A stretch of 64,000 nucleotides of DNA from Candidatus Nomurabacteria bacterium (GCA_023898465.1 CP060223.1:1018587-1082586); one strand, 5' to 3'; numbered from the stretch's first letter, positions 2,795 through 58,645 are shown. The notes: generated from the letters alone by a model not told the origin. Translations and numbers: made by a program.

Positions 2795-3102
2795 ATGCTG
2801 AATTAAGAATATCGCACGGATGGCGGACCCGGGCGATGTAGACTTAGCTATATCGTGCGGGGGCCCTTGAGGGGTAATCCTTACTTCGCATAGAGCTCGA
2901 AGGACTGTCCGCAATCTCGTTGTAAAAGCACCCTAACACAGGGTTATTTTTTTGGCAAGGGTAGAGAAAGTAAAGCACGAAACTCCAAATACAAGGCTCT
3001 AAACAAATTCTAAATCCAAAACATTTACTAAATAGACTGAATTTAGGTCATTGAAATTTCTTATTTGTTTGGATATTCGATATTAGTATTTAGAATTTAT
3101 CT

Positions 3103-4335
3103 ATGAGACTGTGCTACACTTCTCCTATGCCCCAGTATTACTTTATTCTTGGTAAAAACCCGAAGCTCTCTTTAGCAGAGCTAGACCAAGCCCTGCAGAC
3201 TCGTGCCATTACCAGCGAAGTGGTGGCTCGTGCTTCTGACTACTGTATTTTGGAGACCAAAGAAGAGTTAAATCTGGTGGAGTTATTGCAGCACTTGGGA
3301 GGTACACTGAAGGCAGGGCAAATACTTGAAGGGCTTTCTTCACGAGATGAAGTACAAAGTATCTGCGCAAATGTAGATTGGGCAGAGAAAAAACTACCGC
3401 TCACAAAACATCGGGCAGAATTTGGTATAAGCGTCTACGGGACAAAAAAGTCTGGACCCTTAAGTAAGCGCTATGGTCTAGGTTTAAAAAAAGCATTGCA
3501 GTCAATTGGACATTCTGTGCGGATGATTTTTGATCCAAGCGGCCAACTCAGCAGTGTTACCGTAGCAAAGAATGGATTACTGAGTAAGGGTTTTGAGCTT
3601 TGCGTGTTAGAAAGTGCCACTCAACATTGGCTTGGACTTAGTCAGGCAGTGCAATCATTCCGCAAGTTTAGTGAGCGGGATTATGGCCGACCTGACCGTG
3701 ATGCGCGCAATGGCATGCTTCCGCCAAAGTTGGCACTCATGATGCTTAATATTGCGGGCGCAAAAAGCGGAAGCGTCGTGCTCGATCCTTTTTGTGGATC
3801 AGGTACTGTACTGCAAGAAGCACTTTTGCTGGGATGCAAAAAAGTTTATGGTTCGGATATTAGCGAGAAGGCGGTAAAAGATTCGCAAAATAATGTACAG
3901 TGGCTTAGTACGCAGGAGAAGTCGATTGGCACTGTGCAGATACGTAAAGTTGACGCTCGTCAGCTGCGTCCTACCTATGTCGCAGAGTCGGTTGATGTGA
4001 TTGTGACCGAGCCAGACCTTGGTCCGCCGCGACCGGCGCGTAACGAGGAGCAAATAGAAGAACGACGACAAGAAGCCATTGCTTTGTATCGATCTTTCTT
4101 ATCATCAGCGACCAAGGTGTTGAAGGCAAACGGTCGGGTGGTTATGGCTTGGCCCGTTTGGTCTCTGCAGGATACTCGTTATCACTTGCATCCAAAGAAA
4201 ATACTACCAGACGGCTGGACACTACTTTGGCCCTATGGTGATCTAGTATCGCAGGATGGTGAAAAGACCTTGCTCTATGAGCGACCAGGTCAGTTTGTAG
4301 CTCGTGAGATTGTGATACTCTCCCCAAATAAATAG
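3103..4335 (+). CDS. Putative SAM-dependent methyltransferase (UPF0020/Trm11/RlmL-like amino-methyltransferase fold), substrate unknown
   Basis: Motif I VLDPFCGSGTVLQEA; acidic D/E ...SDISEKA; motif IV-like VTEPDLGPP. Confidence 0.6.
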   Translation: MRLCYTSPMPQYYFILGKNPKLSLAELDQALQTRAITSEVVARASDYCILETKEELNLVELLQHLGGTLKAGQILEGLSSRDEVQSICANVDWAEKKLPLTKHRAEFGISVYGTKKSGPLSKRYGLGLKKALQSIGHSVRMIFDPSGQLSSVTVAKNGLLSKGFELCVLESATQHWLGLSQAVQSFRKFSERDYGRPDRDARNGMLPPKLALMMLNIAGAKSGSVVLDPFCGSGTVLQEALLLGCKKVYGSDISEKAVKDSQNNVQWLSTQEKSIGTVQIRKVDARQLRPTYVAESVDVIVTEPDLGPPRPARNEEQIEERRQEAIALYRSFLSSATKVLKANGRVVMAWPVWSLQDTRYHLHPKKILPDGWTLLWPYGDLVSQDGEKTLLYERPGQFVAREIVILSPNK

Positions 4336-8935: not shown

Positions 8936-9454
8936 TTAGTATGGGATCGAATCAATCAAAGAGTAGTTAGCATTTACAAAATCTTTATAGCTTGACCACG
9001 GCCAGTCCTCAGGTTTATTTACCAACCCATCCCTCACTGGATTATAATGAATATAGTTCACGTGATGATTTAGATCTTGTTGGTCACGGATGATGTGGTC
9101 GTAAAATGATTTTTGCCAAATAAATTTCGTAGATAGCCGAGGATGATCATCCTCGGCTATGAGGTGTGGATATATAATATTAATACTCCTTGAAATGTTT
9201 CTTTTTAGGCAATGCATAAGATCAGAAATATTACTTTCATAACGAGGCCGTAACAAAAAATGTGCATGATCATGCATTACAACATACGCGTATAGATAAT
9301 AAGGTTGGATATTTTTTGTTATTTGGAGTCGGGAGATAACAATATTCGCAAGATGAGAATCTTTGAAGAAGGGAATTCTATTGTGAGTTACAATTGTGAC
9401 AAAATATATTCCATCCGGAATATAGATTCGTTTAAGCTTACTAATAAACAACAT
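8936..9454 (-). mobile_element. IS200/IS605-family Y1 (REP-associated tyrosine transposase-like) transposase gene, very AT-rich
   Basis: HxH motif (MHDHAHFLL) and catalytic Tyr region (FYDHIIRDQQD...YIHYNPVRDGLVN...DWPWSSY) typical of the Y1_Tnp family; GC of about 32% against about 58% flanks. Confidence 0.8.
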
Positions 9455-10937: not shown

Positions 10938-11675
10938 CTACCCTTTTCCCTTACGCCAACGCACCGCGTTCAGTAGCGGCCCATAGAGATCATCACGTTT
11001 GTTGATATGCAAATTGCGAATCTCCTTTGGACTAGGATTTCGTTTTTGGAATTGCACGAAAGGGAGCTTGGTGATAAGAGCGAGTGGTGTTTGTTCAGTA
11101 CCCTCACCCATAACGGCAACTGCTGCAGCGGCTAAGGCATCACTGTGATTTGCCTGCGATAAGTACATGGGATGACCAAATAAATCCTTAGTCCCGCGAT
11201 AATCTTTCAGTGCCAAGAAGCCAGAGTGGGCAATCGCAACTCCAGTGGTTCCCCAGCGCAAAGGTCGAGTAGTGCTGTCACTGATGATAACGCCGATCTG
11301 CTGACGCCGGAAACGCTTTTGCAAATAGGTTCGAATCGCATTAGCACTTTTTTTAGGATGCTTTGGCAGCATCACGTGCGCGCCCGCCGCATTCGAGTGA
11401 TCAACTCCCGCTGCAGGGAATAAGTGCGAGTATTTAATTGTCAGCATGGTGTGATATTTACTGCGCTGTCGTGGTAAATACCATTCAGCCTCTCTTTGAA
11501 TCAAGGTGTCTTTATCTGTCCTACGGTCTATATGACCCTCACACAGTGCTACGATTTTTGACGTTACGACGAGGATGCTTTTTTCCGGAATGTTTTTTAC
11601 TGCGCGATCAAGAATACCGGTCAGTGGGCCGGATTCCTCAGTTATACGTGGAGTGCGGATCGCTTTGATATTCAT
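10938..11675 (-). CDS. F420-0:gamma-glutamyl ligase (CofE)-like family protein
   Basis: SILVVTSKIVALCEG ... AGVDHSNA ... matches the CofE/F420_ligase fold. Confidence 0.65.
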   Translation of the reverse strand: MNIKAIRTPRITEESGPLTGILDRAVKNIPEKSILVVTSKIVALCEGHIDRRTDKDTLIQREAEWYLPRQRSKYHTMLTIKYSHLFPAAGVDHSNAAGAHVMLPKHPKKSANAIRTYLQKRFRRQQIGVIISDSTTRPLRWGTTGVAIAHSGFLALKDYRGTKDLFGHPMYLSQANHSDALAAAAVAVMGEGTEQTPLALITKLPFVQFQKRNPSPKEIRNLHINKRDDLYGPLLNAVRWRKGKG

Positions 11676-12358
11676 CGAGGGTATTGTATACCGTATCGCA
11701 GGAAAAGTTCGCTGTCTAGCTCTTTTTGGCTGATAAGCTTCAGCTGAGGCAGGCGCTTTGGTTGGAACATGCTTCCTTCTAGCAAATGAAGACTATTACC
11801 TTTTTCACTGCCTAGCAACTTTGGCGTGAAAGTGAGGAATAGTTCATCGAGTAATTTTGCCTGTACAAAACTCTGTACTAATTGCGGGCCGCCCTCAACT
11901 AAGATGTGATGATAGCCATCCCGATAGAGTTTGGCGCTTAACTTTTTTGCAGAAAAGTTTTTATCCTTCACTTGCTGTATCGCCGTATAGGCAGGTGCAG
12001 ATCTGCGAAGGCCTTGCATAATCTGCGCTTGCCTACTGACTACGATATAGAGGAGCGGTCGGTGTTTGCCAAGCTGCTTTCGTCGCTTTTGAAAGTTCGG
12101 GTCAGTCAGGCGCTGCAGAGTGGGTGAGTTTAGTGCAGTATTGCGGCCATGAATAAGCACGTCAGCATGGGCCCGCAATTCAAGCAGCGTTGCAAAATCA
12201 CGCTGGCTGCCGAGAGGCCAGTATGCTCGGGGATGTTTCCTTGATTGCACTACACCGTCTACTGATTGAACAAAGTTCGTGTAGAAGTAAGGGCGCTTAG
12301 ACTTCAGCGGAAGCTTCAGCCGTCGGTAAAGTGCTTGGTTTGCTCGGTGTTTTGTCAT
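11672..12358 (-). CDS. RibD C-terminal domain (5-amino-6-(5-phosphoribosylamino)uracil reductase-like / DHFR-like) protein
   Basis: NFVQSVDGVV...HHILVEGGPQLVQSFVQAKLLDELFLTFTPKLLG. Confidence 0.7.
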   Translation of the reverse strand: MTKHRANQALYRRLKLPLKSKRPYFYTNFVQSVDGVVQSRKHPRAYWPLGSQRDFATLLELRAHADVLIHGRNTALNSPTLQRLTDPNFQKRRKQLGKHRPLLYIVVSRQAQIMQGLRRSAPAYTAIQQVKDKNFSAKKLSAKLYRDGYHHILVEGGPQLVQSFVQAKLLDELFLTFTPKLLGSEKGNSLHLLEGSMFQPKRLPQLKLISQKELDSELFLRYGIQYPR

Positions 12359-12998
12359 TGCGTAGCCAACGAACGCCTAGGTAAACAAATGGCGTTTCAA
12401 TAATAGACATAGCGCATTTGAGCAACCAGTATGGCAAGATGAGACTGAAGAGGAAGCTGGCGTTATTTCCCAAACCTTTATCAAATGCGTAGAAGGCCAA
12501 GGTCATGAATACAACTGTATCGACGAGTTGTGCCACGATATTAGAAAGGTTATTGCGTAACCACAAACCTTTGTCCTGCATTTTTTTTCGTAGGCGGGCA
12601 AAGACAGCTACATCAAGGAATTCAGCCAGAGCAAAAGCGATCAGACTAGCGGCGGAGATGCGAATTGATTGTACAAAGATAGTATCATAAGCTGCTTCGC
12701 TCCCAGAAAAACGAGTGGAGGGTGGCAAGCTGGTCGCCAGTGCAGTGAAGAGAAAAAGCAAGAAAATCATGAGTAGCCCAGCGCGGATAACGCTACGAGC
12801 TCGTTCGCTTCCGTACACCTCAACAATGACGTCGTTAATGGTGAAGAGGATTGGAATCACAAAAATTGCTACGCTGGCATTCAGGGTGTAGGAGCCGAGG
12901 TGCAGCAATGGAAAAGTCTTGGCGCCCAGCAGCTCAGAGCACATGATGCAGAAGATGTAGATGGCGACCAGTAGGTCAAATTTGCGGATGGAAAACAT
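12297..12998 (-). CDS. yhhQ: Queuosine-precursor transporter YhhQ/Vut family membrane protein
   Basis: Multi-TM; FTINDVIVEVYG motif of the DUF165/YhhQ family. Confidence 0.8.
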   Translation of the reverse strand: MFSIRKFDLLVAIYIFCIMCSELLGAKTFPLLHLGSYTLNASVAIFVIPILFTINDVIVEVYGSERARSVIRAGLLMIFLLFLFTALATSLPPSTRFSGSEAAYDTIFVQSIRISAASLIAFALAEFLDVAVFARLRKKMQDKGLWLRNNLSNIVAQLVDTVVFMTLAFYAFDKGLGNNASFLFSLILPYWLLKCAMSIIETPFVYLGVRWLRNDKTPSKPSTLPTAEASAEV

Positions 12999-16161: not shown

Positions 16162-17391
16162 TTACAACTCAGGATAGAGTGGGAAGGCGGCAGTTAATTC
16201 CTCTACCATTTGTATTGTCTGCTTTTGCTGCTCCTCGCTCTTTGGATTCTTGAGCAGTGCGGCAATAGCCTGACCAATGCGAGTGAACTCAGCTTCTTTC
16301 ATGCCTCGGGTAGTCAGTGCAGGAGAGCCTAAACGGATTCCTGACGGATCCATAGGCTTGCGCGGATCATCCGGGATCATGTTTTTATTCAAAGTAATGT
16401 GAACGCTGTCGAGTAATTCCTGGGCTTCTTTACCGCCTAAACCAAGCGGAGTGACATCAGCCAGGATAAGGTGATTTTCCGTGCCACCAAACATTATGCG
16501 CATACCACCTTCTTGTAATGCATTGCAGAGTGCCTGTGCGTTCAACTTAATTTGCTTCGCGTAGTCTTTAAACTCAGGAGTAAGCGCTTCTCCAAAAGCA
16601 ACAGCTTTCGCCGCAATGTTATGTTCATGCGGACCGCCCTGCATACCAGGGAAGACTGCTTTATCAATTGCTTTGGCATGTTGCTCTTTGCACATAATCA
16701 TACCGCCGCGAGGTCCGCGTAGGGTTTTGTGCGTAGTGGTAGTAACGACATCAAAGAGCGGCACTGGATTCGCCATTTCTCCAGCAGCAATTAATCCGGC
16801 AATATGGGAAATATCGGCCATGGTCAGCGCGCCAACCTCATCAGCAATTTTTTTTACCCGCGCATATTCAATTTCTCGCGAATAAGCAGAGTAGCCAACC
16901 AGGATGAGTTTCGGATGATGCTCTTTTGCCAATCGCTCCATTTCTTCGTAATCGATCTGTCCCTCGGCGGTTGTTTTGTAGCGAATGAAGTTAAACAGTT
17001 TAGCCATCCAGGTCACCGGATGTCCGTGGGTGAGGTGACCGCCATGACTGAGGTCCATACCTAGCACTGTGTCGCCCGGTTCCAGCAAGGCAGAGTACAC
17101 CTCGATATTTGCTGGTGCGCCTGAGAGGGGTTGCACATTCACATGCTCGGCGCCAAAAAGCTGTTTAGCTCGGTCAATCGCCAACTGCTCAACCGTATCG
17201 ACATGTTCGGTACCGCCATAATAGCGTTTACCAGGATAGCCTTCGGAATATTTATTTGTGAGCACAGAGCCGAGTGCCTCAAGTACAGCCAAGGAAACAA
17301 AGTTCTCGGATGGAATCAATTCAAGGCCGTGGCGCTGGCGTTCCAGCTCAGCCTTGATGGCTTCTTGGATAATTGGGTCGTGGGTTTGCAT
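16162..17391 (-). CDS. glyA: Serine hydroxymethyltransferase
   Basis: [20 protein letters not shown]-Lys region ([14 protein letters not shown]). Confidence 0.97.
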
Positions 17392-18232
17392 CGGACTTGA
17401 GTGTAGAATGCTCTGGGCGGACTGGCAAGGGATAGCGTTTCTGGCTAATACGAATGAGCATCCAGAAACCGAGCAGGATAAAAAGTGCGCTCACAATGAG
17501 CGGCAGACGTATACCGATAATATGTGGCGTTGCATCAAAGCGAAAGAGCTCGGCTGCAAAACGGCCAACTCCATAGAGTAGGAAAAAGAGGGCGGTAACA
17601 ACCCCAATCGCTGTGTCATTTTGACGTTTTCGTTCCAGCCAAATAAAGCCAAGTAGTAGCACTACACCGAAAAGATCAATGAGCGATTCATAAAGGAAGA
17701 CCGGATGAAAGTAGCTGGCGTTGATATAGCTTTCTGGTCGAAGTGATTCAGCAATTGGAATGCCCCAAGGCAAGCTTGTTGGTCGTCCAAATAACTCTTG
17801 ATTAAAATAGTTTCCCCAACGCCCAATACTTAAGCCCAGGAGTACGCCAGGCGCCAGGAGGTCCGTCAGGCGAAGGAGGGGAAGTTGCAAGCGCCTTGCT
17901 CCATAATAGAGCACTAGTAATCCGACAAGTATGCCACCATGGATAGCCAGGCCGCCCTGCCAAATTTGGAATATGTCACCTGGGTGTTGCCAATAGTACA
18001 CGGGTTCGTTCAGCACGTGATAGAGCCGCGCGCCAATGAAGCCGAGAAAGGCAGTGAGCAGGAGGAGGTCGGTCAGTCGGCCGAGCGGGATATTTCGCTT
18101 ACGAGAAAGGAGGTAGGTAATAAAATACGCGCTCAGCATGCCCAGACTTAAGCAGAGTCCGTACCAGCTAATAGAGATATTTCCTAGCGTAAAAGCGACG
18201 GCATTGGGAAGTGTTTCGTGGAGGAAATCCAT
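17348..18232 (-). CDS. lgt: Prolipoprotein diacylglyceryl transferase
   Basis: Multi-TM Lgt pattern (ISWYGLC..., [25 protein letters not shown]). Confidence 0.9.
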
Positions 18233-21116: not shown

Positions 21117-24203
<3,087 letters not shown>

Positions 24204-24451
24204 AACATTAGAGTTTGGAATAACGAATGCAACAAACATTGACATTCGAGTTATTCCGCGTCATCATTCTTTGCAGCTATGGAAAGACTTAAGCAATTTC
24301 GTGTCAGTCTGAGTCTGATTATCCTCGGATTGGTAGTAACGGCCTTTGTTGGAATCGTTTTAGCCGTCTCGCCAGCCACGTTAATTGGTCCACAATAGTC
24401 CTATTCATGAGGGGCCGGTGGGTAGTAATTCGTCCTAGGCGGATTACTAGC

Positions 24452-24568
24452 CTCCGGTGCTTCAAGCGATGAGGTCACACCCGATCCCATTCCGAACTCG
24501 GTCGTTAAGCTCATCAGCGCTGATGATACTACGGGGCATACCGTTGGGAAAGTAAGCCAGTGCCGGTT
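24452..24568 (+). rRNA. rrf: 5S ribosomal RNA
   Basis: ...cacccgatcccattccgaactcggtcgttaagctcatcagcgctgatgatactacgggg... with terminal helix ccggtgc/gtgccgg; T-rich terminator follows at 24575-24615. Confidence 0.85.
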
Positions 24569-44935: not shown

Positions 44936-45202
44936 AATAGACGAAAATAACAAAAATTTGACTGCTTGAGCGGGGCTATAGTATCATGCTTCTTGCCCTT
45001 TTACAAGTGGCTAGTATCACGAAGTAGCACGAGTTCGGTGGAACGTTTGAGTGCTCGCCAACCACCCGTTTTAGGCGGGAACGGTGGTTACCACAGCTCT
45101 GTCATCTCAAGACAGGGAACGATGCGCGCGTGTTGTTTCCCTGGCTTGTCCAGGGATTTTTGTTTGGCCCATGACGCGTGCAAACGCATGGAGGTAGTGG
45201 AG

Positions 45203-45586
45203 ATGGCTATTCCATGTCCGCAGCGAGATGCGATTGAGTCTGCTCTTCATCAAGCAGGGTGGACTGGCGAGGAAGCGGCTGAGTTCGTTGTGCAGTCGGA
45301 GATCAGAACCGAAAGTGGCCCAGCATTCTTCCTTGGGGTGAGTGAAGGAACCGGAATGCGCGGTCGCTGGCGTGAAACCAATGTGGCTGTCTACGAGCTG
45401 AAGAAAGGGGCGCGCAAGACGGACCCGCTCAAAGGACAGCGGCATTGGATTGGCCGGAAGGTACATGCACCGGTCTTGATTCTGCATGGTGAGTCCAATG
45501 CCTGTCAGGCACTTCTGCTGACTCCTCCCGAGGAAGGTGTGACCTTCACCACCGCCTCGGAAGCTGACTACGCTGCTATCGCCTGA
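45203..45586 (+). CDS. Hypothetical protein (about 128 aa), GC-rich
   Basis: RBS GGAGG 8 nt upstream of ATG (MAIPCPQ...); terminator 45600-45640. The upstream part of the track ORF (44966-45202) more likely forms a structured leader or sRNA. Confidence 0.4.
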   Translation: MAIPCPQRDAIESALHQAGWTGEEAAEFVVQSEIRTESGPAFFLGVSEGTGMRGRWRETNVAVYELKKGARKTDPLKGQRHWIGRKVHAPVLILHGESNACQALLLTPPEEGVTFTTASEADYAAIA

Positions 45587-45692
45587 TCTGAGATGATCAC
45601 ACAGCAGCCTTGTTCTACGGAATGAGGCTGCTTTTCTTTAAACCCCTCCCAGCCTCCCCTTAGACTAGGGGAGGAGCTAGGCTTTGTCCTGC

Positions 45693-47156
45693 TTACTCCT
45701 TCGGTCGGTTATCGAGTATTCTTTTTTCCTTGAGCTCGGTTTCCATGCCGAGGCGCTGCAAGAGGTCGGTCAGCGGCACAATATCAGTTTGTACGGTGAG
45801 CATCATTTTATCGTGTAGCATTCGTTGAGTTTCGGCTTGGACAGTGTGAGCATCCATACCCGTCTTAGGAGTGAGGTGGACGATAATTTCATCCAGGCCA
45901 TGTGGGTCATCATTCTTTTTACGGAGTTCAACTTGCCATTCCTCAATGCCAGGATGGGCAGAGAGAAGCGGATAGAATTCATTCAAGTTAATCAGTTCAC
46001 CCTTCAACTTCGCCATATGAAATTCGCGCATTTCCGTGACACGCTGAATGTCAGGATAAATGAGCGGTACCGTCTTCCCGCAGTGTGGGCAGGGTTCATT
46101 GGTCATCCCGCGAACCATATCGCCGGTTCGGTAGCGAACGACCATGGAGCCGCGCCAGTTCAAAGCCGTGTAGACAAGCTCGCCAGCCTCACCCTCTTTG
46201 ACGCGCTGCCCCTCAGGGTCAACCACTTCGAAGAATTCGAGATCCGGGTAGGTGTGATAGCCGCTATGTTCATCACACTGAATCCAAGCGGTTTTTCCCT
46301 CGGTCATAGCATAGGTAACGAGCAGCTTCACGTTCTCTGACTTAAGCTCTTTGAGGAGCGCCTTTACCTTCGTACGGAATCCATCATTCACCCGGTCACC
46401 GCCGAAGATAATATGCTGCAGGTTTGAAAAGTCACGCTGCTGCTTCACTGCTTCGCGCAAGAGATGATAAGCATAGCCAGGAATAAAGGCAGCTAATCCA
46501 GCCTTCATTCTTTCCAGAGCGTCAATAATTTTTTGCGTGCCCATAATCTTGCCACCGCCGGTCTGCAGGCTGGTCATACCAATGGTAGTCATGGCGTGAT
46601 AGGTGAGCCAGAAAGCCAAGTGCGGGGAATAAGGAAAGCCGTTGATGCCCACCACACTAGGATCAACTCCAGTTACTTCCAGGAGTCGCTTCCCGGTTTC
46701 TTTTAACATCTGCATGTCGCGGGCAGAATAACCAAAAGCAGTTGGTAAGGCTGAGCGACCGGTGGTGAAATGGAGATGAATCGGTTTATATTCCCACTCA
46801 AGCAGTGGCTTCGGATCTTTACGCTGCAACTTCATAGAGGCTAATTTGAGCAACGTGCTCTTAGAAGCATATTTCTTTAAGAGTTCTTCATCCGGCTGCA
46901 GCATGAAGGTTTTTGGTTTGCCTGGTTCTGCTTCAGTAGGGGCGACGTCTGATTTCGCGATAAAGGGAATCTTCACCAAATCATCTGTAGTGCGGAAGTC
47001 GCTGAAGCTTAAATTACGGTCAGCAAAAAGCTTCCGATAGTGCGGACTATAAGGGAGCTGATGTCGGACCATTGCCTGAAAAAGACGGTTTTGCATGTCT
47101 GCCCGCTCCTCCGGCGAGAGATGTGCAACCCGTTGCCAATCATGGGTGAGTTGCAT
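45693..47156 (-). CDS. Phenylacetate-CoA ligase (PaaK)/coenzyme-F390-synthetase-like adenylate-forming enzyme
   Basis: N-terminal H...LPYS..Y...F.....DL.KIPF..K.DV; C-terminal GELVYTALNWRGSMVVRYRTGD (PaaK-type RYRTxD). Confidence 0.7.
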   Translation of the reverse strand: MQLTHDWQRVAHLSPEERADMQNRLFQAMVRHQLPYSPHYRKLFADRNLSFSDFRTTDDLVKIPFIAKSDVAPTEAEPGKPKTFMLQPDEELLKKYASKSTLLKLASMKLQRKDPKPLLEWEYKPIHLHFTTGRSALPTAFGYSARDMQMLKETGKRLLEVTGVDPSVVGINGFPYSPHLAFWLTYHAMTTIGMTSLQTGGGKIMGTQKIIDALERMKAGLAAFIPGYAYHLLREAVKQQRDFSNLQHIIFGGDRVNDGFRTKVKALLKELKSENVKLLVTYAMTEGKTAWIQCDEHSGYHTYPDLEFFEVVDPEGQRVKEGEAGELVYTALNWRGSMVVRYRTGDMVRGMTNEPCPHCGKTVPLIYPDIQRVTEMREFHMAKLKGELINLNEFYPLLSAHPGIEEWQVELRKKNDDPHGLDEIIVHLTPKTGMDAHTVQAETQRMLHDKMMLTVQTDIVPLTDLLQRLGMETELKEKRILDNRPKE

Positions 47157-47772
47157 AGTCTGGTATTTCCTTATTACTGAGCTGAGCTAAGCGCTCCATC
47201 AGCGCTCGGGTGTGCTTCTGAAGTATAGCATAGCTTATTTCTTCATCCTTCATTGTGGGAATCCGCAGAGGCTCCCCGATATGCACCTCAGTATTTCGAA
47301 GAATAGATGGGAGCTGCCAGAGGGCAGAGACGAAACTGGCATGAGATTTGCCTCGGATGCCCATGGGGAGGACAGGCAATCCTGTTCGCATGGCCATGCG
47401 CACGCAGCCGGTTTTTCCAGGCAACAAGCGTGGCGAGGGATTTCTTTTTCCCTCAGGGAAAAATCCAATCACCCCGTTTTGCGTTAAGTGTTTTTCCGCT
47501 TCATGCATGGCGCCGTTTCGATTCTCAGGATCAATGGGGATAGTATAGGAGCCAAGCATTTGATATGACTTCACTCGAGCAACATAGCGGATGGGCACAT
47601 AAGGAATTTTTTTATCAAGTGCGACTAAAAGCATGATACCGTCCAGCCAGTCGATGTGATTTGCGGCTACGATGAAAGGTTGCTGCAGCGGCACGTGCTC
47701 AAGTCCCTCAACATGAGTAAGTCGCTTGGTGCAGTAAGCTTCAAATGGCGACCAAAATCGACGACGCATCAT
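47140..47772 (-). CDS. Lysophospholipid/1-acylglycerol-3-phosphate acyltransferase family (PlsC-like), paralog 3
   Basis: AANHIDWLDG (HX4D), FFPEGKRN. Confidence 0.8.
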   Translation of the reverse strand: MMRRRFWSPFEAYCTKRLTHVEGLEHVPLQQPFIVAANHIDWLDGIMLLVALDKKIPYVPIRYVARVKSYQMLGSYTIPIDPENRNGAMHEAEKHLTQNGVIGFFPEGKRNPSPRLLPGKTGCVRMAMRTGLPVLPMGIRGKSHASFVSALWQLPSILRNTEVHIGEPLRIPTMKDEEISYAILQKHTRALMERLAQLSNKEIPDYATHP

Positions 47773-48401
47773 TGACGTTGATATTCCTTGGCACTTAAGG
47801 CGGCGATTGCCCGCATGCATTCATCAGTCAGACGATGCAACTCTTCACGAGTAATGTTTTCCATCGAGGCAGTGAAGTGTATAGGCGCACCCAAGCGAAT
47901 ACGCAGAGGTGTTTTTTGTAGCACTTCCTTGAGCGCATCAGTAGCTCCACCTGGCCCGGCAAAAATACCAGCCGGCACGATAGGCGCACCGCTGCTCAAG
48001 GCCAGACGTGCTGCGCCAGTTTTCCCAGTTCGCAACTGCACTTCAGCATTTCGTTTACCCTCGGGGAAAATGCCAATAACACCACCCTGTTTCAATTGTT
48101 GCACGCAGGCTTCCAATACTGCGCCAGGTTTATCATCGAGCACAGGCAGCATGCCTAGGCTTTGGGCGCCGCGGGCACCGAGCATTTTCTTATACCGCTT
48201 CCATACCCAGGAGGTAGTTGGGAAGAGCGGTGTTTGTCCGGTGTGTTTTTGCACGACATAGGATAGGATGGGCGCGTCTAAGAAACCCTGGTGGTTTCCT
48301 GCGATGATGAAAGGCCCATGCGTGGGCAGCAACTCGATATTTTCGATGACGAGCTGCTTTTTCAGAGCTGCCCTGAGTAAGAAAGTGACAGGATTAGCCA
48401 T
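47769..48401 (-). CDS. PlsC-like acyltransferase, paralog 2
   Basis: AGNHQGFLDAPIL (HX4D), IFPEGKRN. Confidence 0.8.
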   Translation of the reverse strand: MANPVTFLLRAALKKQLVIENIELLPTHGPFIIAGNHQGFLDAPILSYVVQKHTGQTPLFPTTSWVWKRYKKMLGARGAQSLGMLPVLDDKPGAVLEACVQQLKQGGVIGIFPEGKRNAEVQLRTGKTGAARLALSSGAPIVPAGIFAGPGGATDALKEVLQKTPLRIRLGAPIHFTASMENITREELHRLTDECMRAIAALSAKEYQRQ

Positions 48402-49023
48402 AGTGTTGTTCGGGAGGATAAGGAATACCAGAGAGTCGACTGAGCTCCTCCATAATAGCATCTGCTTGGGCTGGGTAGGAACGTGGGTCTGTTTCCCTCG
48501 GAATAAGGATAGGCTTACCAATACGCAAGCGGACGCTCTCTGAGCCAATGAAGGCGTGCGCAAGCGGATGCATGCGACGAATGCCAATGGGGAGGATGGG
48601 CACCCCAGTATCCTGAGCTATGCGTAGGAGGCCAAGCTTGGGCTGTAGGAGATGTTGTGCATGAGAAACCTCTCCTTCAGGGAATATACCGATGCAGTCA
48701 CCGCGCTGGAGATAGGACTCAACATGTCGGAACCATGCATCATGATCATCCTCCCGAGTGGGTGTGGGTATTGCGTGCGTCCACCATTGCGAATAGCGAC
48801 CAAAGTAGCGCCAATATTTTTTATGTGGATCTACCAGGAAACGTATGAGACGTCCACTTGCCTCCACGATCGGTGCGCCGACAAAGAGTGGATCAAGTAA
48901 GCCCACATGGTTGGCGGCTACCAGGAAGGGCTGATCTTTTGGTACAAACTCAATACCCTCAACCGACTTGATGCCAAGCCGGATGAGGGGAAAGAGAGTT
49001 TTTCGAGCGACTGGGTAATGCAT
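48394..49023 (-). CDS. PlsC-like acyltransferase, paralog 1
   Basis: AANHVGLLDPLFV (HX4D), IFPEGEVS. Confidence 0.8.
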   Translation of the reverse strand: MHYPVARKTLFPLIRLGIKSVEGIEFVPKDQPFLVAANHVGLLDPLFVGAPIVEASGRLIRFLVDPHKKYWRYFGRYSQWWTHAIPTPTREDDHDAWFRHVESYLQRGDCIGIFPEGEVSHAQHLLQPKLGLLRIAQDTGVPILPIGIRRMHPLAHAFIGSESVRLRIGKPILIPRETDPRSYPAQADAIMEELSRLSGIPYPPEQHYG

Positions 49024-49041: not shown

Positions 49042-51126
49042 TTAGATGAAGAGTGGAGCCAAGACCAAGGTCAGGGTTGCCAACAACTTGATCAAGACGT
49101 GCAGTGATGGACCAGCGGTATCCTTTAATGGATCACCAACGGTATCACCAATAACGGTAGCTGCGTGTACCTGACTTCCTTTGGCTTGAATGTTGCCATT
49201 GGAATCTTTGAACTTACCTGATTCAATGAATTTCTTTGCGTTGTCCCAGGCGCCACCACCATTGTTCATCACGATAGCGAGCAAGACACCGACAATGGTG
49301 CCGATCATTAACATTCCGGCAACCGCTTCTGCTCGGAAGATAAGACCGACTAAGATTGGGACAGTGACGGCAATGATACCTGGCAAAACCATTTGGCGCA
49401 GGGCGCTCTTGGTAGCAATATCAACTGCTTGGCCGTAGTCAGGCTTTTCTGTGCCGTTCATGATGCCTGGCTTTTCGCGGAATTGACGACGCACTTCGTT
49501 GATAATCGCATAGGCAGATTTACCAACTGCTCGGATGGCCAATGAAGAGAAAAGGAAGATTAACATGGCACCAAGCATAGCACCGATGAAGACCGGTACC
49601 TTTGATAGGTCAACTGCAGTAATGAGATCAGGTGAGAGGTTATTTACTTCCTCAATATACGCAGAGAAGAGGAGGAAGGCAGCCAGGGCGGCAGAACCAA
49701 CCGCGTATCCCTTGGTAAGAGCCTTGGTGGTGTTTCCTACTGCATCCAAGGTGTCTGTCAGCTTACGGGTTTCTTCTGGGCGACCGGAGTTTTCGACAAT
49801 ACCACCAGCGTTGTCAGTGATCGGACCAAAGGTGTCCATAGCCAAGATATAAGTAGCTGTGACGAGCATACCCATAGTGGCCAGCGCAGTACCATAGAGA
49901 CCACCTTGCTCAACACCACTTGCATCACCGAGCAGGTAGGAGCCAAACAGTGTGGCTGCAATGGCAATGATTGGGAAGGCAGTGTTTTCAAACGCTACTG
50001 CCAAACCAGTAATGATGTTGGTTGCCGGACCAGTTTCTGAAGCCTCGGCAATTGAACGGACTGGACGATATTTATGTTCAGTGTAGTACTGCGTCAGGAG
50101 CATGAAGACAATACTCATGATGATACCGACTAAGCCAGCCAGGAAGAACCAGGTGGCTGCTCCACCAAACATTTCGCGAGTAACAAAGAAGAAGGCGATA
50201 GCGGACAAAAGGCTGGTGACATAGTAACCGCGGTTCAGGGCCTTCATAGGGTCTTCATTTGCTCGTGTGCGGACAACCAAAATACCGATAATAGAAGCGA
50301 TCAAACCAAAAGCCATGATGACGAGCGGGAAGAGGACACCCTTAATTCCAAAAGTTGGGAAAAGGGCCACACCGAGAATCATTGCACCGATATTTTCAGC
50401 TGCAGTTGATTCAAAAATGTCAGCTCCACGACCAGCGCAGTCACCTACATTATCGCCGACCAAGTCAGCAATCACGGCTGGGTTACGTGGGTCGTCTTCT
50501 GGGATGCCGGCTTCTACTTTACCCACGAGGTCAGCTCCAACGTCAGCTGCTTTGGTGTAAATACCACCACCGAGCTGAGCAAAGAGGGCGACAAAAGAAG
50601 CGCCGAATCCAAATCCGACAATCAAGCCAGGGATAGAGCGCTCTTCAAAGCCGAGCCAAGAGTAGACAAGGAAAAGGGATGATAAGCCAAAGAGTGCCAA
50701 GGCAACAACCATGATACCTTCCACGGCTCCACCGCGGAGGGCGATTTGGACGGCCTTGTTAAGATCCTGCTTATCAGCGGCGGCGGCAGTTTTTAAGTTC
50801 GCACGAACTGAAACGGCCATACCGGTGTAACCCGCAATACCAGAGCAGAGTGCTCCAAAGAGGAAGGCAAGTCCGGTCTGTGTGCCGACATCTAACTTAC
50901 CAAGGATGGCATAGACGCCAAAGATGAGTAAGGCGAGTGCAATCGACAGTAAAGCGATAGTGCGGTACTGGCGACGAAGGAAGGCTTTTGCTCCTTGGCG
51001 GATAGCATTTGCCACCTCTTGCATTTCTGAGGTGCCGTTATCTTGGCGATTTACCAATCGACCAAAGAATAGGGCGATAATGAGACCAGCTAAACTGACA
51101 AAGAAAGCGAGATAGATAAATTCCAT
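49042..51126 (-). CDS. hppA: Membrane-bound proton/sodium-translocating pyrophosphatase
   Basis: GDNVGDCAGRGADIFES, DVGADLVGK, about 16 TM segments. Confidence 0.95.
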   Translation of the reverse strand: MEFIYLAFFVSLAGLIIALFFGRLVNRQDNGTSEMQEVANAIRQGAKAFLRRQYRTIALLSIALALLIFGVYAILGKLDVGTQTGLAFLFGALCSGIAGYTGMAVSVRANLKTAAAADKQDLNKAVQIALRGGAVEGIMVVALALFGLSSLFLVYSWLGFEERSIPGLIVGFGFGASFVALFAQLGGGIYTKAADVGADLVGKVEAGIPEDDPRNPAVIADLVGDNVGDCAGRGADIFESTAAENIGAMILGVALFPTFGIKGVLFPLVIMAFGLIASIIGILVVRTRANEDPMKALNRGYYVTSLLSAIAFFFVTREMFGGAATWFFLAGLVGIIMSIVFMLLTQYYTEHKYRPVRSIAEASETGPATNIITGLAVAFENTAFPIIAIAATLFGSYLLGDASGVEQGGLYGTALATMGMLVTATYILAMDTFGPITDNAGGIVENSGRPEETRKLTDTLDAVGNTTKALTKGYAVGSAALAAFLLFSAYIEEVNNLSPDLITAVDLSKVPVFIGAMLGAMLIFLFSSLAIRAVGKSAYAIINEVRRQFREKPGIMNGTEKPDYGQAVDIATKSALRQMVLPGIIAVTVPILVGLIFRAEAVAGMLMIGTIVGVLLAIVMNNGGGAWDNAKKFIESGKFKDSNGNIQAKGSQVHAATVIGDTVGDPLKDTAGPSLHVLIKLLATLTLVLAPLFI

Positions 51127-51153: not shown

Positions 51154-52596
51154 TTATGAAGACTTTGACGCTGCTTCCTCCTCCACTGGAGCCTCGTCAT
51201 TTTTCTCTACTACTTCACCCTCGGTCGCTGGATTTGCTTCCTCAGGTGCGGCTTCCTCGGCTTTTTCTTCTTCAGCCGGTGCGGCCTCTGTTTCACTAGG
51301 TGTTTCGTCATCAGGTGATGCGCTTGCTTCGACCGGAGCGGCTTCACCCTCTTCACCTTCTTTTGCTTCACGTTGGGCCTGACGATCGGCTACATCTTGA
51401 CCTTCGCCGACAATGTCAATTTTCCAGCCAGTGAGTTTGGCGGCTAAGCGTACGTTTTGTCCGCTCTTGCCAATAGCCAGAGAGAGTTGATCTTCTTTCA
51501 CTTCTGCCACGGCAGCTTTTTCCTCTTCATTCAACTTGATGCTGAGGATTTTGGCCGGGGACAGGGCGTTGGAAATGAATTTCACTGCGTCATTTGACCA
51601 CTCGATAATATCAATCTTCTCACCGCTTAATTCAGCAATGATGGTTTGAACGCGAGTACCGCGCTGACCCACGCAGGAACCGACCGGGTCAATATTTTTC
51701 TGATCAGTGAAGACTGCAACCTTGGTGCGAGAACCAGCTTCGCGGGCAATCGCTTTGATTTCCACGGCACCACTTTGCACTTCAGGGACTTCAACCGTGA
51801 AGAAGCGTCGTACCATTTCAGGATGCGAGCGGGAAACAATGATCTCAGGGCCTTTTGGCGTAGTGTTTACCGAAACCACATAGAATTTCATGCGCAAGCC
51901 AGGTGCGTATTGCTCACGGTCTACTTGTTCTTGTGGTGGCATCAGGGCAGTGGCGTGACCGAGGTCAACCAGCACCATGCGTCCTTCCAGACGCTGTACC
52001 ACACCGGCGATAATTTCGCCTTCCTTATCTTTAAACTCTTGGTAAATAGTTTCACGTTCAGCTTCACGGAGTCGCTGCACAATAACCTGCTTGGCAGTTT
52101 GGGCAGCCATGCGTCCGTAGGCGGCTGGTGGGAAAAGCTCAGTCCAGATTTCTTCACCAAGCTCAGCATCTTCTTTCAGCGCTTTTGCTTCACTCAAACC
52201 AATCATGGTTTTAGGATCCCAGCGTTCTTCCTCTTCTTCATTCTCTGCTGCTTGTTCCTCTGCTTCCGCCTTAGCTTTTTCAGCTTCGGCATGCTTGGCA
52301 GCAGCTTCTGGACCCTGCTCAGCTGCTTCTGCAGCCGCGCGCTCGCGCTCTTCTCGTTCGGCTTCGTACTGGGCTTTTAACTCATCAGTACCGACTATTT
52401 TGACGTCAAAAACCCGGGCGGTGCCGGTTTCCACGTCAAACTTTGCTTTGATGTTTTGATTCTTTTCACCAAAGTCTTTGCGGTAGGCAACTGCCAAGGC
52501 CGCTTCGATAGTTGCAATGACCGAATCATAGGGAATGTTTTTTTCCGCACAGATTTGCTCGATTGCTTGCTTTATTGCTGACTCTTCTTTTGCCAT
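51154..52596 (-). CDS. nusA: Transcription termination/antitermination factor NusA with a Glu/Ala-rich insertion and acidic C-terminal tail
   Basis: NusA NTD, S1 and KH1/KH2 similarity (GKSGQNVRLAAKLTGWKIDI). Low-complexity E/A insert at about aa 80-150 and an E/A/P-rich tail. Probable start MAKEES. Confidence 0.9.
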   Translation of the reverse strand: MAKEESAIKQAIEQICAEKNIPYDSVIATIEAALAVAYRKDFGEKNQNIKAKFDVETGTARVFDVKIVGTDELKAQYEAEREERERAAAEAAEQGPEAAAKHAEAEKAKAEAEEQAAENEEEEERWDPKTMIGLSEAKALKEDAELGEEIWTELFPPAAYGRMAAQTAKQVIVQRLREAERETIYQEFKDKEGEIIAGVVQRLEGRMVLVDLGHATALMPPQEQVDREQYAPGLRMKFYVVSVNTTPKGPEIIVSRSHPEMVRRFFTVEVPEVQSGAVEIKAIAREAGSRTKVAVFTDQKNIDPVGSCVGQRGTRVQTIIAELSGEKIDIIEWSNDAVKFISNALSPAKILSIKLNEEEKAAVAEVKEDQLSLAIGKSGQNVRLAAKLTGWKIDIVGEGQDVADRQAQREAKEGEEGEAAPVEASASPDDETPSETEAAPAEEEKAEEAAPEEANPATEGEVVEKNDEAPVEEEAASKSS

Positions 52597-52940
52597 ATAG
52601 TGTTGTTCTCCATACAAAATGAACTAGCCTTCTAATGTGCTAGTCTGTAAACGAGTATAGCAGAAAATAGGAACACGTCAAGTGGAAAGAAAAGCTCCAC
52701 GCGGAGAGGGGTGCGTGGAGAGATAGTTATCGACCTTGGCCGGTCTGCTTCCAGTCCCTTTGAGGGGAGGTTGGCAATTTGGCTAGTATCCGCCAGATTC
52801 GATTATCCTCTCCGAACCTGGATGCCCACCTTAGCGCCTCCATTATGACCTGTCAAACAGTATTGCGTTGACGGTCTGGGCTGCCTGGCGTAGTCTGCTA
52901 GTGTTCTCAGGACAAAGATGCCGCAATGGGGGATAGGTGC

Positions 52941-53384
52941 ATGGAGGAATTGTTTCGGAACAAGGCTCTTTTCGCTGCGATTATCGCAGCCTGCTCAGCT
53001 CAGGTGCTCAAGTTTCTCTTGTCCATCTGGACAGAGCGTCGCTGTGATTGGTCGCGACTCTGTGAAACAGGAGGGATGCCCTCCGCGCATACTGCTGGAG
53101 TTGTTGCACTGGCGATAAGCGTGGGACGTCTGCAAGGTTGGGCGAGCGTGGCCTTTGCCATCACTGCCGTGTTTGCCTACATCGTGATCTACGATGCCAC
53201 CAATGTACGGCGGGCAGCTGGGCAGCACGCGCATCTCCTCAATCAACTCGTCGTGGAATTGGAGGAACTCTTCAGCGGCGATTTCCAGCCCGAACAACTG
53301 AAGACTTTGTTGGGGCATAGTTACCCGCAAGTTTTCTTTGGAGGTGTGGTCGGGGCAGTCATTTCTCTCTGCTTACTCCACTGA
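52941..53384 (+). CDS. Divergent PAP2 family (DUF212/YuiD-like) membrane protein
   Basis: GGMPSAHTAGVVALA ... IYDATNVRRAAGQHAHLLNQL. Promoter TTGACG-17-TAGTCT upstream. Confidence 0.75.
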   Translation: MEELFRNKALFAAIIAACSAQVLKFLLSIWTERRCDWSRLCETGGMPSAHTAGVVALAISVGRLQGWASVAFAITAVFAYIVIYDATNVRRAAGQHAHLLNQLVVELEELFSGDFQPEQLKTLLGHSYPQVFFGGVVGAVISLCLLH

Positions 53385-56785: not shown

Positions 56786-57265
56786 TCAAAGGAAATCAGG
56801 ATTATCTAAATGAATCGGTTCATTGAGACTAAGATATCGAGCCTTAGCTGAAGACCAAGGATAGTCTGTTGCTTCATTCACCAATCCTGATTGAACAGGG
56901 TTGTGATGAATATAAGCCGCTTTATTATTGTAGTCATTTTGATCCCGTATAATATGATCATGAAAACCATGCTGAATAAGTTGTCCGGATTTATTTTTTC
57001 TAATATTCCATTCCCGCGAAAATCTTCCATTGAGATGTCGTAGGGTGTTGCTAATCGAGCCATCTTTTGATGGACAAATAATGAGATGGTAATGATCAGG
57101 CATGAGCACGAATTCGTATATGCGAATCCCGTAGCGGACACGCAGTTGTATGAGAATGTTCAAAAAAATATTACAAGCAGTTTCGGAAAGGAATATATTG
57201 CGCCGCTTGTGCATGACCACAGTTACAAAGAAAGGGAGATAATAGATGTCTAGGCGCTTTTTCAT
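56786..57265 (-). mobile_element. IS200/IS605-family Y1 transposase (REP-associated tyrosine transposase, RAYT-like)
   Basis: HxH (MPDHYHLII) and Tyr region (FHDHIIRDQNDYNNKAAYIHHNPVQSGLVN..DYPWSS); flanked both sides by identical REP hairpins. Confidence 0.8.
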
Positions 57266-57523: not shown

Positions 57524-58645
57524 ATGTCCGGTGTCCGGATACTTGGTTACGGCGCATACGTGCCCCAGTGGATCGTTGACAATGACGAGATGACACGACT
57601 CATCAACGAAGCTGTTCGGGCTGGACTTGCCAGTGGCGAGATCAGTGGAGACCTCGACGGACTTCTGTGCAATGAGGGTTTCATCGAAGCGCGAACAGGG
57701 ATTTGTGAGCGTCGCTTCGTGGTGCCGGGTCAAGCGAGTAGCGATTTGGCGGTGGGCGCGCTACAGTCCTGTGAACGCACGACTGGTTCAATCGAAGGAG
57801 ATGGGAGCTTCTTACGCATTGCAACGGTGACTCCGGATTATCCGGCCTCACCTCCTACGGCAGCTGTTGTTCAAGAAGCTATGGGGTGGCCCTGCGCTCA
57901 TCCCGATGGTCGCTTGATCGATCGGCTGGTGGGAGATGGTTCGGCTGCCTGCACTAGCTTCGTCACCGAGCTGGCCCTAGCTGAAGCGTTGCTGAGGTCA
58001 GGGAATCGACGGGCCGGATATGTCGTTGGCGCGGATGTGATGTCGACCTTGCCTGATCCTTGCGACCGGGCAGTACGCATCATTCTCGGCGATGGAGCCT
58101 TTGCGCTCCAACTTGGTGTCGGTGAAGAAGATGAGGACTGCTTCCTGCCTGGCGGAAAGAGCTTCTTCTTCGGATCTGACGGCAGCATGGCTGATTTGAT
58201 CAAGGTGCCGGCTGGTGGATCACGTCGCCCGGTTGGCTTGGATGATCTGCGTGGCGCGGTGCCGCGTTTGGCGTATCTGCACATGCAGGGCAACGAAGTG
58301 TTCAAGAAGATTGTCCGTCGCGTGACTGATGAAATCGTCTTGCAGGCATTGGCGAAAGTCGGGCTGCAGGTCTCGGACATTGACTTGTTCGTGTTTCATC
58401 AGGCCAATCTGCGTATGATCGATGCGGTGACGAAGCGCCTCGAGATTGAAGCCAGGACTTTCAACAACATTGATCGTTTCGGCAACACGACCAGTGCATC
58501 GATCGGCCTGTGTCTGGCCGAGGCGCACGCCAAAGACAGGCTCAAGGCAGGTATGCGCGTCATGTTGGTGGGCTTTGGCGGAGGCTTCACCTGGGGGACC
58601 TGCATTCTCCGTTGGCCCGACCTACCTGTCTGTTCTTTTCTCTAG
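57524..58645 (+). CDS. 3-oxoacyl-ACP synthase III (FabH/KAS III)-like condensing enzyme, GC-rich
   Basis: Thiolase fold; FHQANLRM (His), GNTTSASI (Asn), candidate nucleophile in GSAACTSF. Confidence 0.75.
   Translation: MSGVRILGYGAYVPQWIVDNDEMTRLINEAVRAGLASGEISGDLDGLLCNEGFIEARTGICERRFVVPGQASSDLAVGALQSCERTTGSIEGDGSFLRIATVTPDYPASPPTAAVVQEAMGWPCAHPDGRLIDRLVGDGSAACTSFVTELALAEALLRSGNRRAGYVVGADVMSTLPDPCDRAVRIILGDGAFALQLGVGEEDEDCFLPGGKSFFFGSDGSMADLIKVPAGGSRRPVGLDDLRGAVPRLAYLHMQGNEVFKKIVRRVTDEIVLQALAKVGLQVSDIDLFVFHQANLRMIDAVTKRLEIEARTFNNIDRFGNTTSASIGLCLAEAHAKDRLKAGMRVMLVGFGGGFTWGTCILRWPDLPVCSFL

Follow-up and report, generated by a model that had tools for sequence, protein, structure and literature searches.

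Four genes at positions 45693-49023 of a 64,000-nt stretch of DNA from a Candidatus Nomurabacteria bacterium (GCA_023898465.1, CP060223.1:1018587-1082586) would make up the central part of a module by which a Patescibacterium salvages and assembles glycerolipids, an assignment to which a probability of roughly 0.55 is given here. The whole stretch is referred to as the window, and all positions are counted from its first nucleotide. The genes encode three short acyltransferases of the PlsC family, designated AT1, AT2, and AT3, and an adenylate-forming ligase with a PaaK-type fold. They are tightly packed, their products can be assigned to families and folds and have intact catalytic motifs, the linkage between acyltransferases and ligase is conserved in relatives, and lipid genes recur next to the relatives' loci.

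In the proposed scenario, the ligase would adenylate a carboxylic acid obtained by scavenging, most probably a long-chain fatty acid contained in lipids of the host or the environment. This acid could be freed by a patatin-like phospholipase that is encoded right after the ligase in relatives. The acyl group would be handed on, most simply as a coenzyme A (CoA) thioester, with a carrier protein-bound form or the adenylate itself being other conceivable intermediates. The short, peripheral, PlsC/Aas-like acyltransferases would then use this donor on acceptors built on glycerol phosphate, namely, lysophospholipids, glycerol-3-phosphate plus lysophosphatidate, or both. Specificity for acceptor or position would differ from paralog to paralog. 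Eventually, a CarS-type cytidylyltransferase, which belongs to the gene block of relatives, would convert phosphatidate into CDP-diacylglycerol. It is from this combination of a phospholipase, an acid activator, PlsC-family acyltransferases, and a CDP-lipid synthase that a role in glycerolipid turnover and assembly is deduced.

Patescibacteria, or the Candidate Phyla Radiation (CPR), are reported to have fatty-acid-based, perhaps lysolipid-rich membranes and to lack fatty-acid synthesis, PlsX, and steps dependent on acyl carrier protein (ACP), while no mechanism of lipid uptake or breakdown has been identified in these reports (PMC7242380, PMC11665869, PMC13293708). CPR genomes are described as containing PlsY and PlsC without PlsX or ACP-dependent enzymes (PMC7242380), and since the usual donor-making enzymes are thus reported to be missing, an adenylating enzyme encoded adjacent to acyltransferases is the obvious candidate for this function. 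The module comprises the following genes.

48394-49023, minus strand: AT1, first gene of the module, 209 amino acids, PlsC/LPLAT-family acyltransferase (PF01553, E 5.3e-19)
47769-48401, minus strand: AT2, second gene, 210 amino acids from the likely start ATG 48401 (PF01553, E 2e-20)
47140-47772, minus strand: AT3, third gene, 210 amino acids from the likely start ATG 47772 (PF01553, E 1.3e-20)
45693-47156, minus strand: PaaK-fold adenylate-forming ligase, last gene, 487 amino acids (PF00501 AMP-binding, 33 bits, E 3.4e-8)

The minus strand encodes all four genes, which are thus transcribed in the order AT1, AT2, AT3, ligase. A first-pass annotation of the window had described a PaaK-type ligase and three HX4D/FPEG acyltransferases, tightly packed and co-directional, and this description holds, with open reading frames (ORFs) at the limits it gave, the Pfam matches listed above, and the RYRTGD motif at residues 341-346 of the ligase. 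It had placed the ligase first, however, and thus read the gene order backwards. The junctions had been characterized as abutting or overlapping in the ATGA manner; all three do overlap, but AT2/AT3 is the sole true ATGA overlap, the overlaps at AT1/AT2 and AT3/ligase being 8 nt and 17 nt, respectively. For AT2 and AT3, the mechanically derived ORFs begin upstream of the likely start, that of AT2 being overlong from TTG 48587; the starts given in the list are preferred because a public 209-amino acid protein (P0342) is 99% identical to AT3 and gene calls in relatives range from 205 to 218 amino acids.

The ligase contains all of the ANL core motifs, namely, a variant A3, A5, A7, and the lysine of A10. 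In an alignment of 80 homologs, invariant columns comprise the variant P-loop of A3 (FTTGRSALPT in the window, TTGRSALPT being T131-T139, with T-T-G-R-x-A-x-P-T conserved), the pocket motif N172-x-F-P-Y-x-P-H-L-x-x-W183, GGGK at residues 200-203, T285-E286 of A5, R341-Y-x-T-G-D346 of A7, the Cys pair C356 and C359, the hinge residues D369, Q371, and R372, and the C-terminal sequence E-L-K476-x-x-R-x-x-D-x-R (ELKEKR in the window). In a register set by hand, K476 aligns with the lysine of the PaaK sequence G-K-x-x-R-x-x-D-x-R and is likely to be the retained A10 lysine. An AlphaFold2 (AF2) model of the ligase (predicted local distance difference test, pLDDT, 88.7) displays the PaaK-type ANL fold including the N-terminal helical microdomain. 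In Foldseek, it resembles BT_0428, PaaK1/PaaK2, and 2-hydroxyisobutyryl-CoA ligase (template modeling (TM) scores of 0.75-0.87 at 19-22% identity), with E values of 1e-31 to 1e-35 against PaaK1 (2y27, 2y4n) and BT_0428; the CoA-independent PaaK-family ligases NatL2 and AjiA1 superpose slightly worse (TMt 0.77-0.79, 18-19% identity).

With the NCBIfam models, the ligase stays below every named-family cut-off. The best named match is FlxY (NF053551; 136.4 bits, cut-off 520), followed by PaaK (110.5 bits against 700 for NF041878 and 84.9 bits against 646.3 for TIGR02155), the DVU_1553 family (96 bits, cut-off 300), and coenzyme F390 synthetase (TIGR03335; 58.3 bits, cut-off 458.7), while FadD models give 25-27 bits. 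The aryl-contact residues of PaaK1 are reportedly Y136, F141, and A147 (Law & Boulanger 2011), the register having been checked against the chain sequence. In a profile alignment to 2y27, these positions fall on F174, H179, and T185 (family consensus A at 185) of the ligase, so that none of the PaaK1 residues is kept; the replacements F174 and H179 lie inside the invariant 172-183 motif and T185 is close by. The suspicion that this is not an ordinary aryl-CoA ligase is thereby borne out, given scores of 85-136 bits against cut-offs of 459-700, an acyl-pocket motif that is both remodeled and invariant, and no paa genes nearby, the neighbors in the window and in relatives being NusA, a H+-translocating pyrophosphatase (H+-PPase), the acyltransferases, and trigger factor. 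Judged from its sequence, the ligase represents a catalytically competent, distinct PaaK-clade subfamily with its own conserved acyl pocket.

The ligase family proper is compact. A scan of 1.84 billion cluster representatives yielded 6236 matches at E<=1e-3 and 116 at E<=1e-30, and the best 120 of more than 2000 homologs are ~483 amino acids long and 55-74% identical, those with a name being metagenome-assembled genomes (MAGs) of Patescibacteria, Kerfeldbacteria, or Parcubacteria. A search for the exact sequence of the window's ligase matched no record. When a search was seeded with L013, whose ligase is the most divergent of those linked to acyltransferases, that set of uncultured Patescibacteria alone came up again, with no ortholog from cultured Saccharibacteria for which Tn-seq data exist. 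Public labels for the ligase are "AMP-binding protein" or "phenylacetate-CoA ligase", which is probably misleading for the metabolic reconstruction of these genomes. The idea of an amphipathic membrane helix in the extra N-terminal segment of the ligase was dropped, the hydrophobic moments being unremarkable and the N-terminus of HCL being similarly long.

Each acyltransferase matches PF01553 in Pfam (E about 1e-19 to 1e-21) and contains the HX4D motif (HVGLLD in AT1, HQGFLD in AT2, HIDWLD in AT3) as well as the FPEG block (FPEGEVS in AT1, FPEGKRN in both AT2 and AT3); among 121 related acyltransferases, the catalytic His is kept in 120 and the Asp/Glu in all. Curated models of PlsC, OlsA, YihG, and Aas score far below their cut-offs, with 60-64 bits for TIGR00530 (AT1 60.5; cut-off 102.95) and 16-23 bits for PRK15018 (cut-off 501), and the only match to LpxL/LpxM (PF03279) is that of AT2 with 16.6 bits, the gathering threshold being 22.3. 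Lipoamino-acid synthesis, which had been offered as one possible role, finds no support: the OlsA models give 20-25 bits (cut-off 300), and a scan of neighboring genes, both in the window and at the related loci, turned up no OlsB-like N-acyltransferase. The sole solved sequence relative is the PlsC of Thermotoga maritima (5kym; E 1.5e-11 to 2.3e-7, with 4e-8 for AT1 and 2.3e-7 for AT2). It is also the first structural match of an AF2 model of AT3 (pLDDT 88.7; E 1.6e-8, TM score 0.57), followed by the plant and human glycerol-3-phosphate acyltransferases (GPATs) 1iuq, 8e4y, and 1k30.

The difference from PlsC resides in the N-terminus. Residue 21 of AT1 corresponds to PlsC residue 66, and the acyltransferase core begins at residues ~21-30, compared to residue 66 in the enzymes of T. 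maritima and E. coli, so that the ~45-residue N-terminal membrane motif of PlsC is missing; the AT3 model has one short N-terminal helix only. No transmembrane segment is found in any of the four module proteins (maximum 19-residue hydropathy <=1.55 for the acyltransferases). A hidden Markov model (HMM) of CPR acyltransferases gives 55 bits with the acyltransferase domain of E. coli Aas, 51 with PlsC, and 13 with PlsB, and HMM position 32 corresponds to Aas residue 29, which means that the core starts as in the Aas domain and not at residue 66 as in PlsC. By sequence, the three proteins appear equidistant from Aas and PlsC, and by architecture they look Aas-like; a closer sequence relationship to Aas was considered and dropped because 55 and 51 bits are nearly equal and N-terminal architecture alone favors Aas.

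Pairwise identities of 28.6%, 31.5%, and 31.8% over ~195 amino acids agree with the earlier estimate of about 30% and with the old divergence concluded from it. In the closest relative, L001, every one of the three has a separate partner at 41-46% identity (72% for the ligase), while deeper orthology is blurred by lineage-specific duplications. Three clean orthologous groups were not retained as a concept, since the neighbor-joining tree is star-like and there is no fixed AT1/AT2/AT3 orthology beyond L001. AT2 is the paralog nearest to the single copy kept in one-acyltransferase relatives, being the best BLAST match for the single-copy enzymes of L003, L004, L022, L024-L026, L028, L044, L046, L063, and L070. 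The homolog search with the acyltransferases gave 12 relatives, the word-index search used rarely reaching such fast-evolving sequences. The Arg of motif III is present in AT2 and AT3 and in ~60% of relatives; its absence from AT1 suggests that acceptor use probably varies among the paralogs. Motif II shows poor conservation, with a column that changes with the alignment and basic residues that often lie 1-4 positions away from it, and for this reason the notion that the motif II/III arginines preclude lysophosphatidate as acceptor was abandoned.

Conservation of the arrangement was followed through 98 loci (17 genome and 80 metagenome loci around ligase relatives and one found by exact-sequence match) with 90 distinct ligase sequences; informative loci were those in which ligase identity reached 52% or more and 700 nt or more of DNA were available upstream (n=61). 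A dedicated acyl-activation and acyl-transfer module had been proposed, with conservation in relatives set beforehand as the refutation test, and the proposal is supported: 59 of the 61 loci carry 1-4 acyltransferases just upstream of the ligase on the same strand, in 55 cases abutting and in four at a distance of 370-780 nt, with two loci lacking any. The linkage is conserved, but not the number three, as loci with at least 2.7 kb of upstream DNA contain one (11 loci), two (20), three (14), or four copies (one). In L054, a single 1329-nt ORF (2480-3808) contains two acyltransferase domains (E 3e-106), which points to a fusion or else to an artefact of the assembly. Conservation extends to the wider order of NusA, H+-PPase, acyltransferases, ligase, and trigger factor. 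The acyltransferase-ligase pair persists without the H+-PPase in L005, L014, and L019, between TyrRS and an aminotransferase in L013, where all other neighbors are different, and among unrelated neighbors in L074, which has a second acyltransferase downstream. Across relatives, identities are 47-72% for the ligase, 56-74% for NusA, and 35-53% for trigger factor; in conservation, the ligase is roughly on a par with NusA and ahead of trigger factor and the acyltransferases, and it therefore behaves as a core function.

Where relatives have additional DNA between ligase and trigger factor, two gene families recur on the ligase strand, examples of which are given below.

L003, 7434-8333, ligase strand: patatin-like phospholipase (PF01734)
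L008, 7486-8388, ligase strand: patatin-like phospholipase (PF01734)
L064, 6592-7581, ligase strand: patatin-like phospholipase (PF01734)
L003, 8380-8943, ligase strand: CarS-type cytidylyltransferase (PF01864)
L014, 3303-3863, ligase strand: CarS-type cytidylyltransferase (PF01864)
L022, 3723-4265, ligase strand: CarS-type cytidylyltransferase (PF01864)

The patatin-like gene (~300 amino acids), which is not named by any NCBIfam model, directly follows the ligase in nine distinct loci, and in a tenth, L002, it lies beyond trigger factor, about 3 kb further on. The CarS-type gene (~185 amino acids) occurs in 16 distinct loci, either after the ligase or the patatin-like gene or immediately before the acyltransferases, thus switching ends while staying attached to the block. 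It scores 127-145 bits with the CDP-archaeol synthase equivalog (cut-off 148), matches CTP_transf_1 weakly, and in these Patescibacteria presumably acts as a CDP-diacylglycerol synthase, archaeal in type or descent. One or both of the genes are present in the same block in 22 distinct loci, in agreement with the lipid chemistry suggested by the first-pass annotation.

Several observations weigh against a fatty acid-based salvage module. Neither a patatin-like nor a CarS-type gene is found within the 64-kb window. The solved relatives of the ligase all act on aryl or short hydroxy acids. In a sister clade of ligases (46-49% identical, from low-GC bacterial contigs), 18 of 20 loci are without an acyltransferase, the ligases sitting among unrelated housekeeping genes; in two of this clade's loci, L085 and L092 (3340-7870), a Na+:solute symporter, a ligase, and a second ligase paralog stand in a row, which fits a small soluble acid. 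Furthermore, the whole block from NusA to trigger factor is syntenic, so that the linkage in part reflects gene order passed on by descent, and adjacency becomes weaker as evidence on its own. Finally, the window contains a FabH-like beta-ketoacyl-ACP synthase III ORF (57524-58645, plus strand; 237 bits, cut-off 249 of NF006829), which adjoins an IS200-like Y1 transposase ORF (56786-57265, minus strand). Its presence is surprising, the lineage being said to be without fatty-acid synthesis. The gene, possibly a horizontal acquisition, may hint that the organism is not wholly devoid of acyl-chain chemistry and has a bearing on the existence of ACP- or CoA-based acyl chemistry there.

The aryl- and small-acid-specific structures and the symporter would be accounted for if the acid with which the module decorated a lipid or an envelope polymer were not a fatty acid. 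The ligase would then activate an aryl, aryl-polyene, or short hydroxy acid, like FlxY, PaaK, and HCL, and the LPLAT-type acyltransferases would esterify it onto a lipid anchor, a role proposed for flexirubin and aryl-polyene clusters. FlxY as best named-family match of the ligase (136 bits) points in the same direction, and flexirubin and aryl-polyene clusters also combine PaaK-clade ligases with LPLAT genes. This explanation is nevertheless considered unlikely. All named-family scores are far below the cut-offs, and the three PaaK1 aryl-contact positions are replaced by F, H, and T/A. A regex scan of small ORFs in the window and in the 98 loci (0.9 Mb) gave no credible ACP-like match, and no polyketide synthase, ketosynthase, dehydratase, methyltransferase, or exporter was found among the neighboring genes scanned with Pfam. 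The neighbors that do recur, patatin and CDP-lipid synthase, are bulk-lipid enzymes, and the conservation is at the level of core genes in minimal genomes.

The inherited gene order and the stand-alone sister ligases would suit the view that there is no functional coupling at all, in which case ordinary PlsC-type paralogs would use another acyl donor, the ligase would serve an unrelated carboxylate metabolism, and their adjacency would be frozen gene order. NusA, H+-PPase, and trigger factor, although unrelated, are indeed equally syntenic, and no ligase-acyltransferase fusion was detected among the top family representatives, including eight unusually long ones. This view, too, has little probability, since the adjacency of acyltransferases and ligase outlives both the change of every other neighbor (L013, L074) and the loss of the H+-PPase, the acyltransferase copy number varies at this site only, the CarS-type gene swaps block ends yet stays attached, start and stop codons overlap, and the usual donor-making enzymes are reported to be lacking in Patescibacteria (PMC7242380).

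Least probable among the alternatives is a non-canonical chemistry in the same lipid role, in which no acyl-CoA would be formed, but the acyl-adenylate would be handed directly to the acyltransferases or to an unrecognized carrier, or acyl-phosphate would be made for PlsY, with no need for ACP and possibly none for CoA. It is disfavored by the hinge Arg and the A10 Lys of the two-step ANL cycle, which the ligase has kept, by a CoA-binding-domain protein encoded in the same conserved neighborhood, from which it follows that CoA is probably available, and by the fact that PlsC-family enzymes are known with thioester donors only. In its favor stand the family-specific variants of P-loop and hinge in the ligase, the lack of an ACP-like gene near any locus, the use of adenylates without CoA by the PaaK-family ligases NatL2 and AjiA1 (PMC8388817), and the reported presence of PlsY and PlsC without PlsX or ACP-dependent enzymes in CPR (PMC7242380).

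A glycerolipid salvage and assembly module thus remains the preferred assignment, and it would have a housekeeping character. The first-pass annotation had set the module apart from housekeeping functions, which is probably wrong: the NusA-like conservation of the ligase, its location in a housekeeping block, and the reported absence of lipid synthesis from the lineage (PMC7242380, PMC11665869, PMC13293708) make a housekeeping membrane-lipid route more likely than an exotic secondary lipid chemistry. In its boldest form, which takes in the non-canonical chemistry described above and is regarded as a rather long shot, the assignment would hold that this ligase fills the place of the acyl activator missing in Patescibacteria. 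Neither ACP nor, possibly, CoA would be required, the acyl-adenylate being passed to the short acyltransferases directly or via an unrecognized carrier, and together with the relatives' patatin-like and archaeal-type CarS enzymes the ligase would form a self-contained pathway from host phospholipid to the symbiont's CDP-diacylglycerol. If true, this would be a route of membrane biogenesis not known in any other bacteria. Patescibacteria make up a large share of bacterial diversity. The ligase and 1-4 acyltransferases, a compact set with strong conservation and translational coupling, would, with the phospholipase and CDP-lipid synthase of relatives, cover the release, activation, and transfer of fatty acids as well as CDP-activation. 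With four small soluble proteins, the module is a tangible candidate, amenable to testing, for closing a gap that has long existed in the biology of CPR. No publication on the gene cluster was found in full-text searches, which is no proof of its being unpublished.

Upstream and downstream of the module, the following features are relevant to its transcription.

49042-51126, minus strand: membrane-bound H+-translocating pyrophosphatase (PF03030, E 6.9e-259), stop codon 18 nt before AT1
51154-52681, minus strand: NusA, identified by translation and conserved in position in relatives, and a promoter-like site
45603-45680: two hairpins right after the ligase stop, found by sequence inspection (CCTCCCCT/AGGGGAGG and a 13-bp stem at 45603-45632), with one terminator-like match

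The H+-PPase gene precedes the acyltransferases in most relatives, and one may speculate that the enzyme hydrolyzes the pyrophosphate freed by adenylation. The promoter-like site, TTGACG-16-TATACT with TG at 52681-52654, is the only strong one on the minus strand by consensus match and could possibly be the start of a NusA-PPase-AT1-AT2-AT3-ligase transcription unit, which would probably end at the two hairpins. The second hairpin (45603-45632) has a T-run on the plus strand and may also terminate a small ORF on the opposite strand (44966-45586, plus), located between ligase and trigger factor. This ORF has no Pfam or NCBIfam match; its 73-amino acid core (MAIPCPQRDAIE...MRGRW) is 45% identical to an ORF of L001 in the same relative place and on the same strand. 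An Rfam search (gathering threshold and E<=1) gave nothing credible for an RNA gene in the 740-bp spacer between ligase and trigger factor.

Outside the module, the window carries typical housekeeping genes. Among those touching on lipids are a prolipoprotein diacylglyceryl transferase, Lgt (17348-18232, minus strand), which needs a diacylglycerol-donating phospholipid, and a DUF212/divergent PAP2 membrane protein (52926-53384, plus strand), which is transcribed divergently from NusA and belongs to a lipid-handling type. The 23S rRNA (3087 nt compared to a 2925-nt model, with ~160 nt of insertions) and 5S rRNA genes are located at 21117-24568 (plus strand), whereas the window has no 16S rRNA gene at all; an unlinked rRNA operon like this one is often reported for CPR. 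These genes and the sources of the ligase homologs place the genome in the Patescibacteria (CPR). Besides the transposase ORF next to the FabH-like gene, a second IS200-like (Y1_Tnp) ORF is present at 8936-9454 (minus strand) of this small, streamlined genome. At 10938-12998 (minus strand), a CofE-like "putative folate metabolism gamma-glutamate ligase" (233 bits, cut-off 350) adjoins a protein with a RibD_C domain and a vitamin-uptake transporter (Vut_1), the whole looking like a small cofactor-salvage cluster. An archaeal origin of the stand-alone ligase clade was considered and rejected, as its neighbors include bacterial-type AlaRS, RecO, and TyrRS. The "binchicken" MAG records L001, L004, L012, and L017 are titled "uncultured Gammaproteobacteria bacterium" and carry the typical Patescibacteria block; these labels look wrong.

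By the tests run, the components of the module are not PaaK, F390 synthetase, FlxY, canonical PlsC, OlsA, or LpxL. With PaaK and the structural-genomics protein BT_0428, the ligase shares RxRTxD, two Cys residues spaced much as in CxxC, and K-x-x-R-x-x-D-x-R at the C-terminus. It differs from PaaK in its P-loop (TTGRSALPT instead of SSGTTGxPT), in its pocket strand (the invariant NxFPYxPHLxxW instead of SYGYGLFTGG), and in an extra N-terminal segment of ~37 residues, the overall N-terminal length being about that of HCL. The acyltransferases have the GPAT/lysophosphatidate acyltransferase (LPAAT) fold, HX4D, and the FPEG block in common with canonical PlsC (T. maritima 5kym, E. coli), but are without its N-terminal two-helix or transmembrane anchor. 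In FlxY-containing flexirubin and aryl-polyene clusters, a PaaK-clade ligase is likewise encoded beside LPLAT-family genes, whereas the module has no polyketide or ACP genes nearby and stands in the housekeeping context of a minimal genome.

Closer in logic are two systems of lipid re-acylation. In Chlamydia trachomatis, AasC and LpaT, an acyl-ACP synthetase and a lysophospholipid acyltransferase, incorporate host fatty acids; Chlamydia keeps the full type II pathway for making fatty acids (FASII) and ACP, and AasC is an ANL enzyme of the FadD/Aas type. As in the module, a host-dependent bacterium there has adjacent, separate genes for the activation of an acid and for a PlsC-family acyltransferase. 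The ligase of the module, in contrast, is PaaK-type, and its lineage is reported to be without FASII and ACP (PMC7242380).

Aas of E. coli is a fused 2-acyl-glycerophosphoethanolamine acyltransferase/acyl-ACP synthetase encoded beside the lysophospholipid transporter LplT. Compared to this enzyme, the genes of the module are separate with 1-4 acyltransferases, the ligase is PaaK-fold and not FadD-type (BLAST against Aas, E 2.7), there is no ACP in evidence near the module and no transmembrane segment in the four proteins, and no LplT-like transporter is found among the neighboring genes scanned. In both systems, however, an adenylate-forming enzyme is teamed with an acyltransferase of PF01553, whose core starts ~30 residues from the N-terminus and which has no PlsC-type membrane motif. 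Aas re-acylates lipids from free fatty acid, and the role proposed for the module is likened to it in this respect. Summarizing, the four genes would work like E. coli Aas with LplT or like Chlamydia AasC-LpaT, while being members of neither family.

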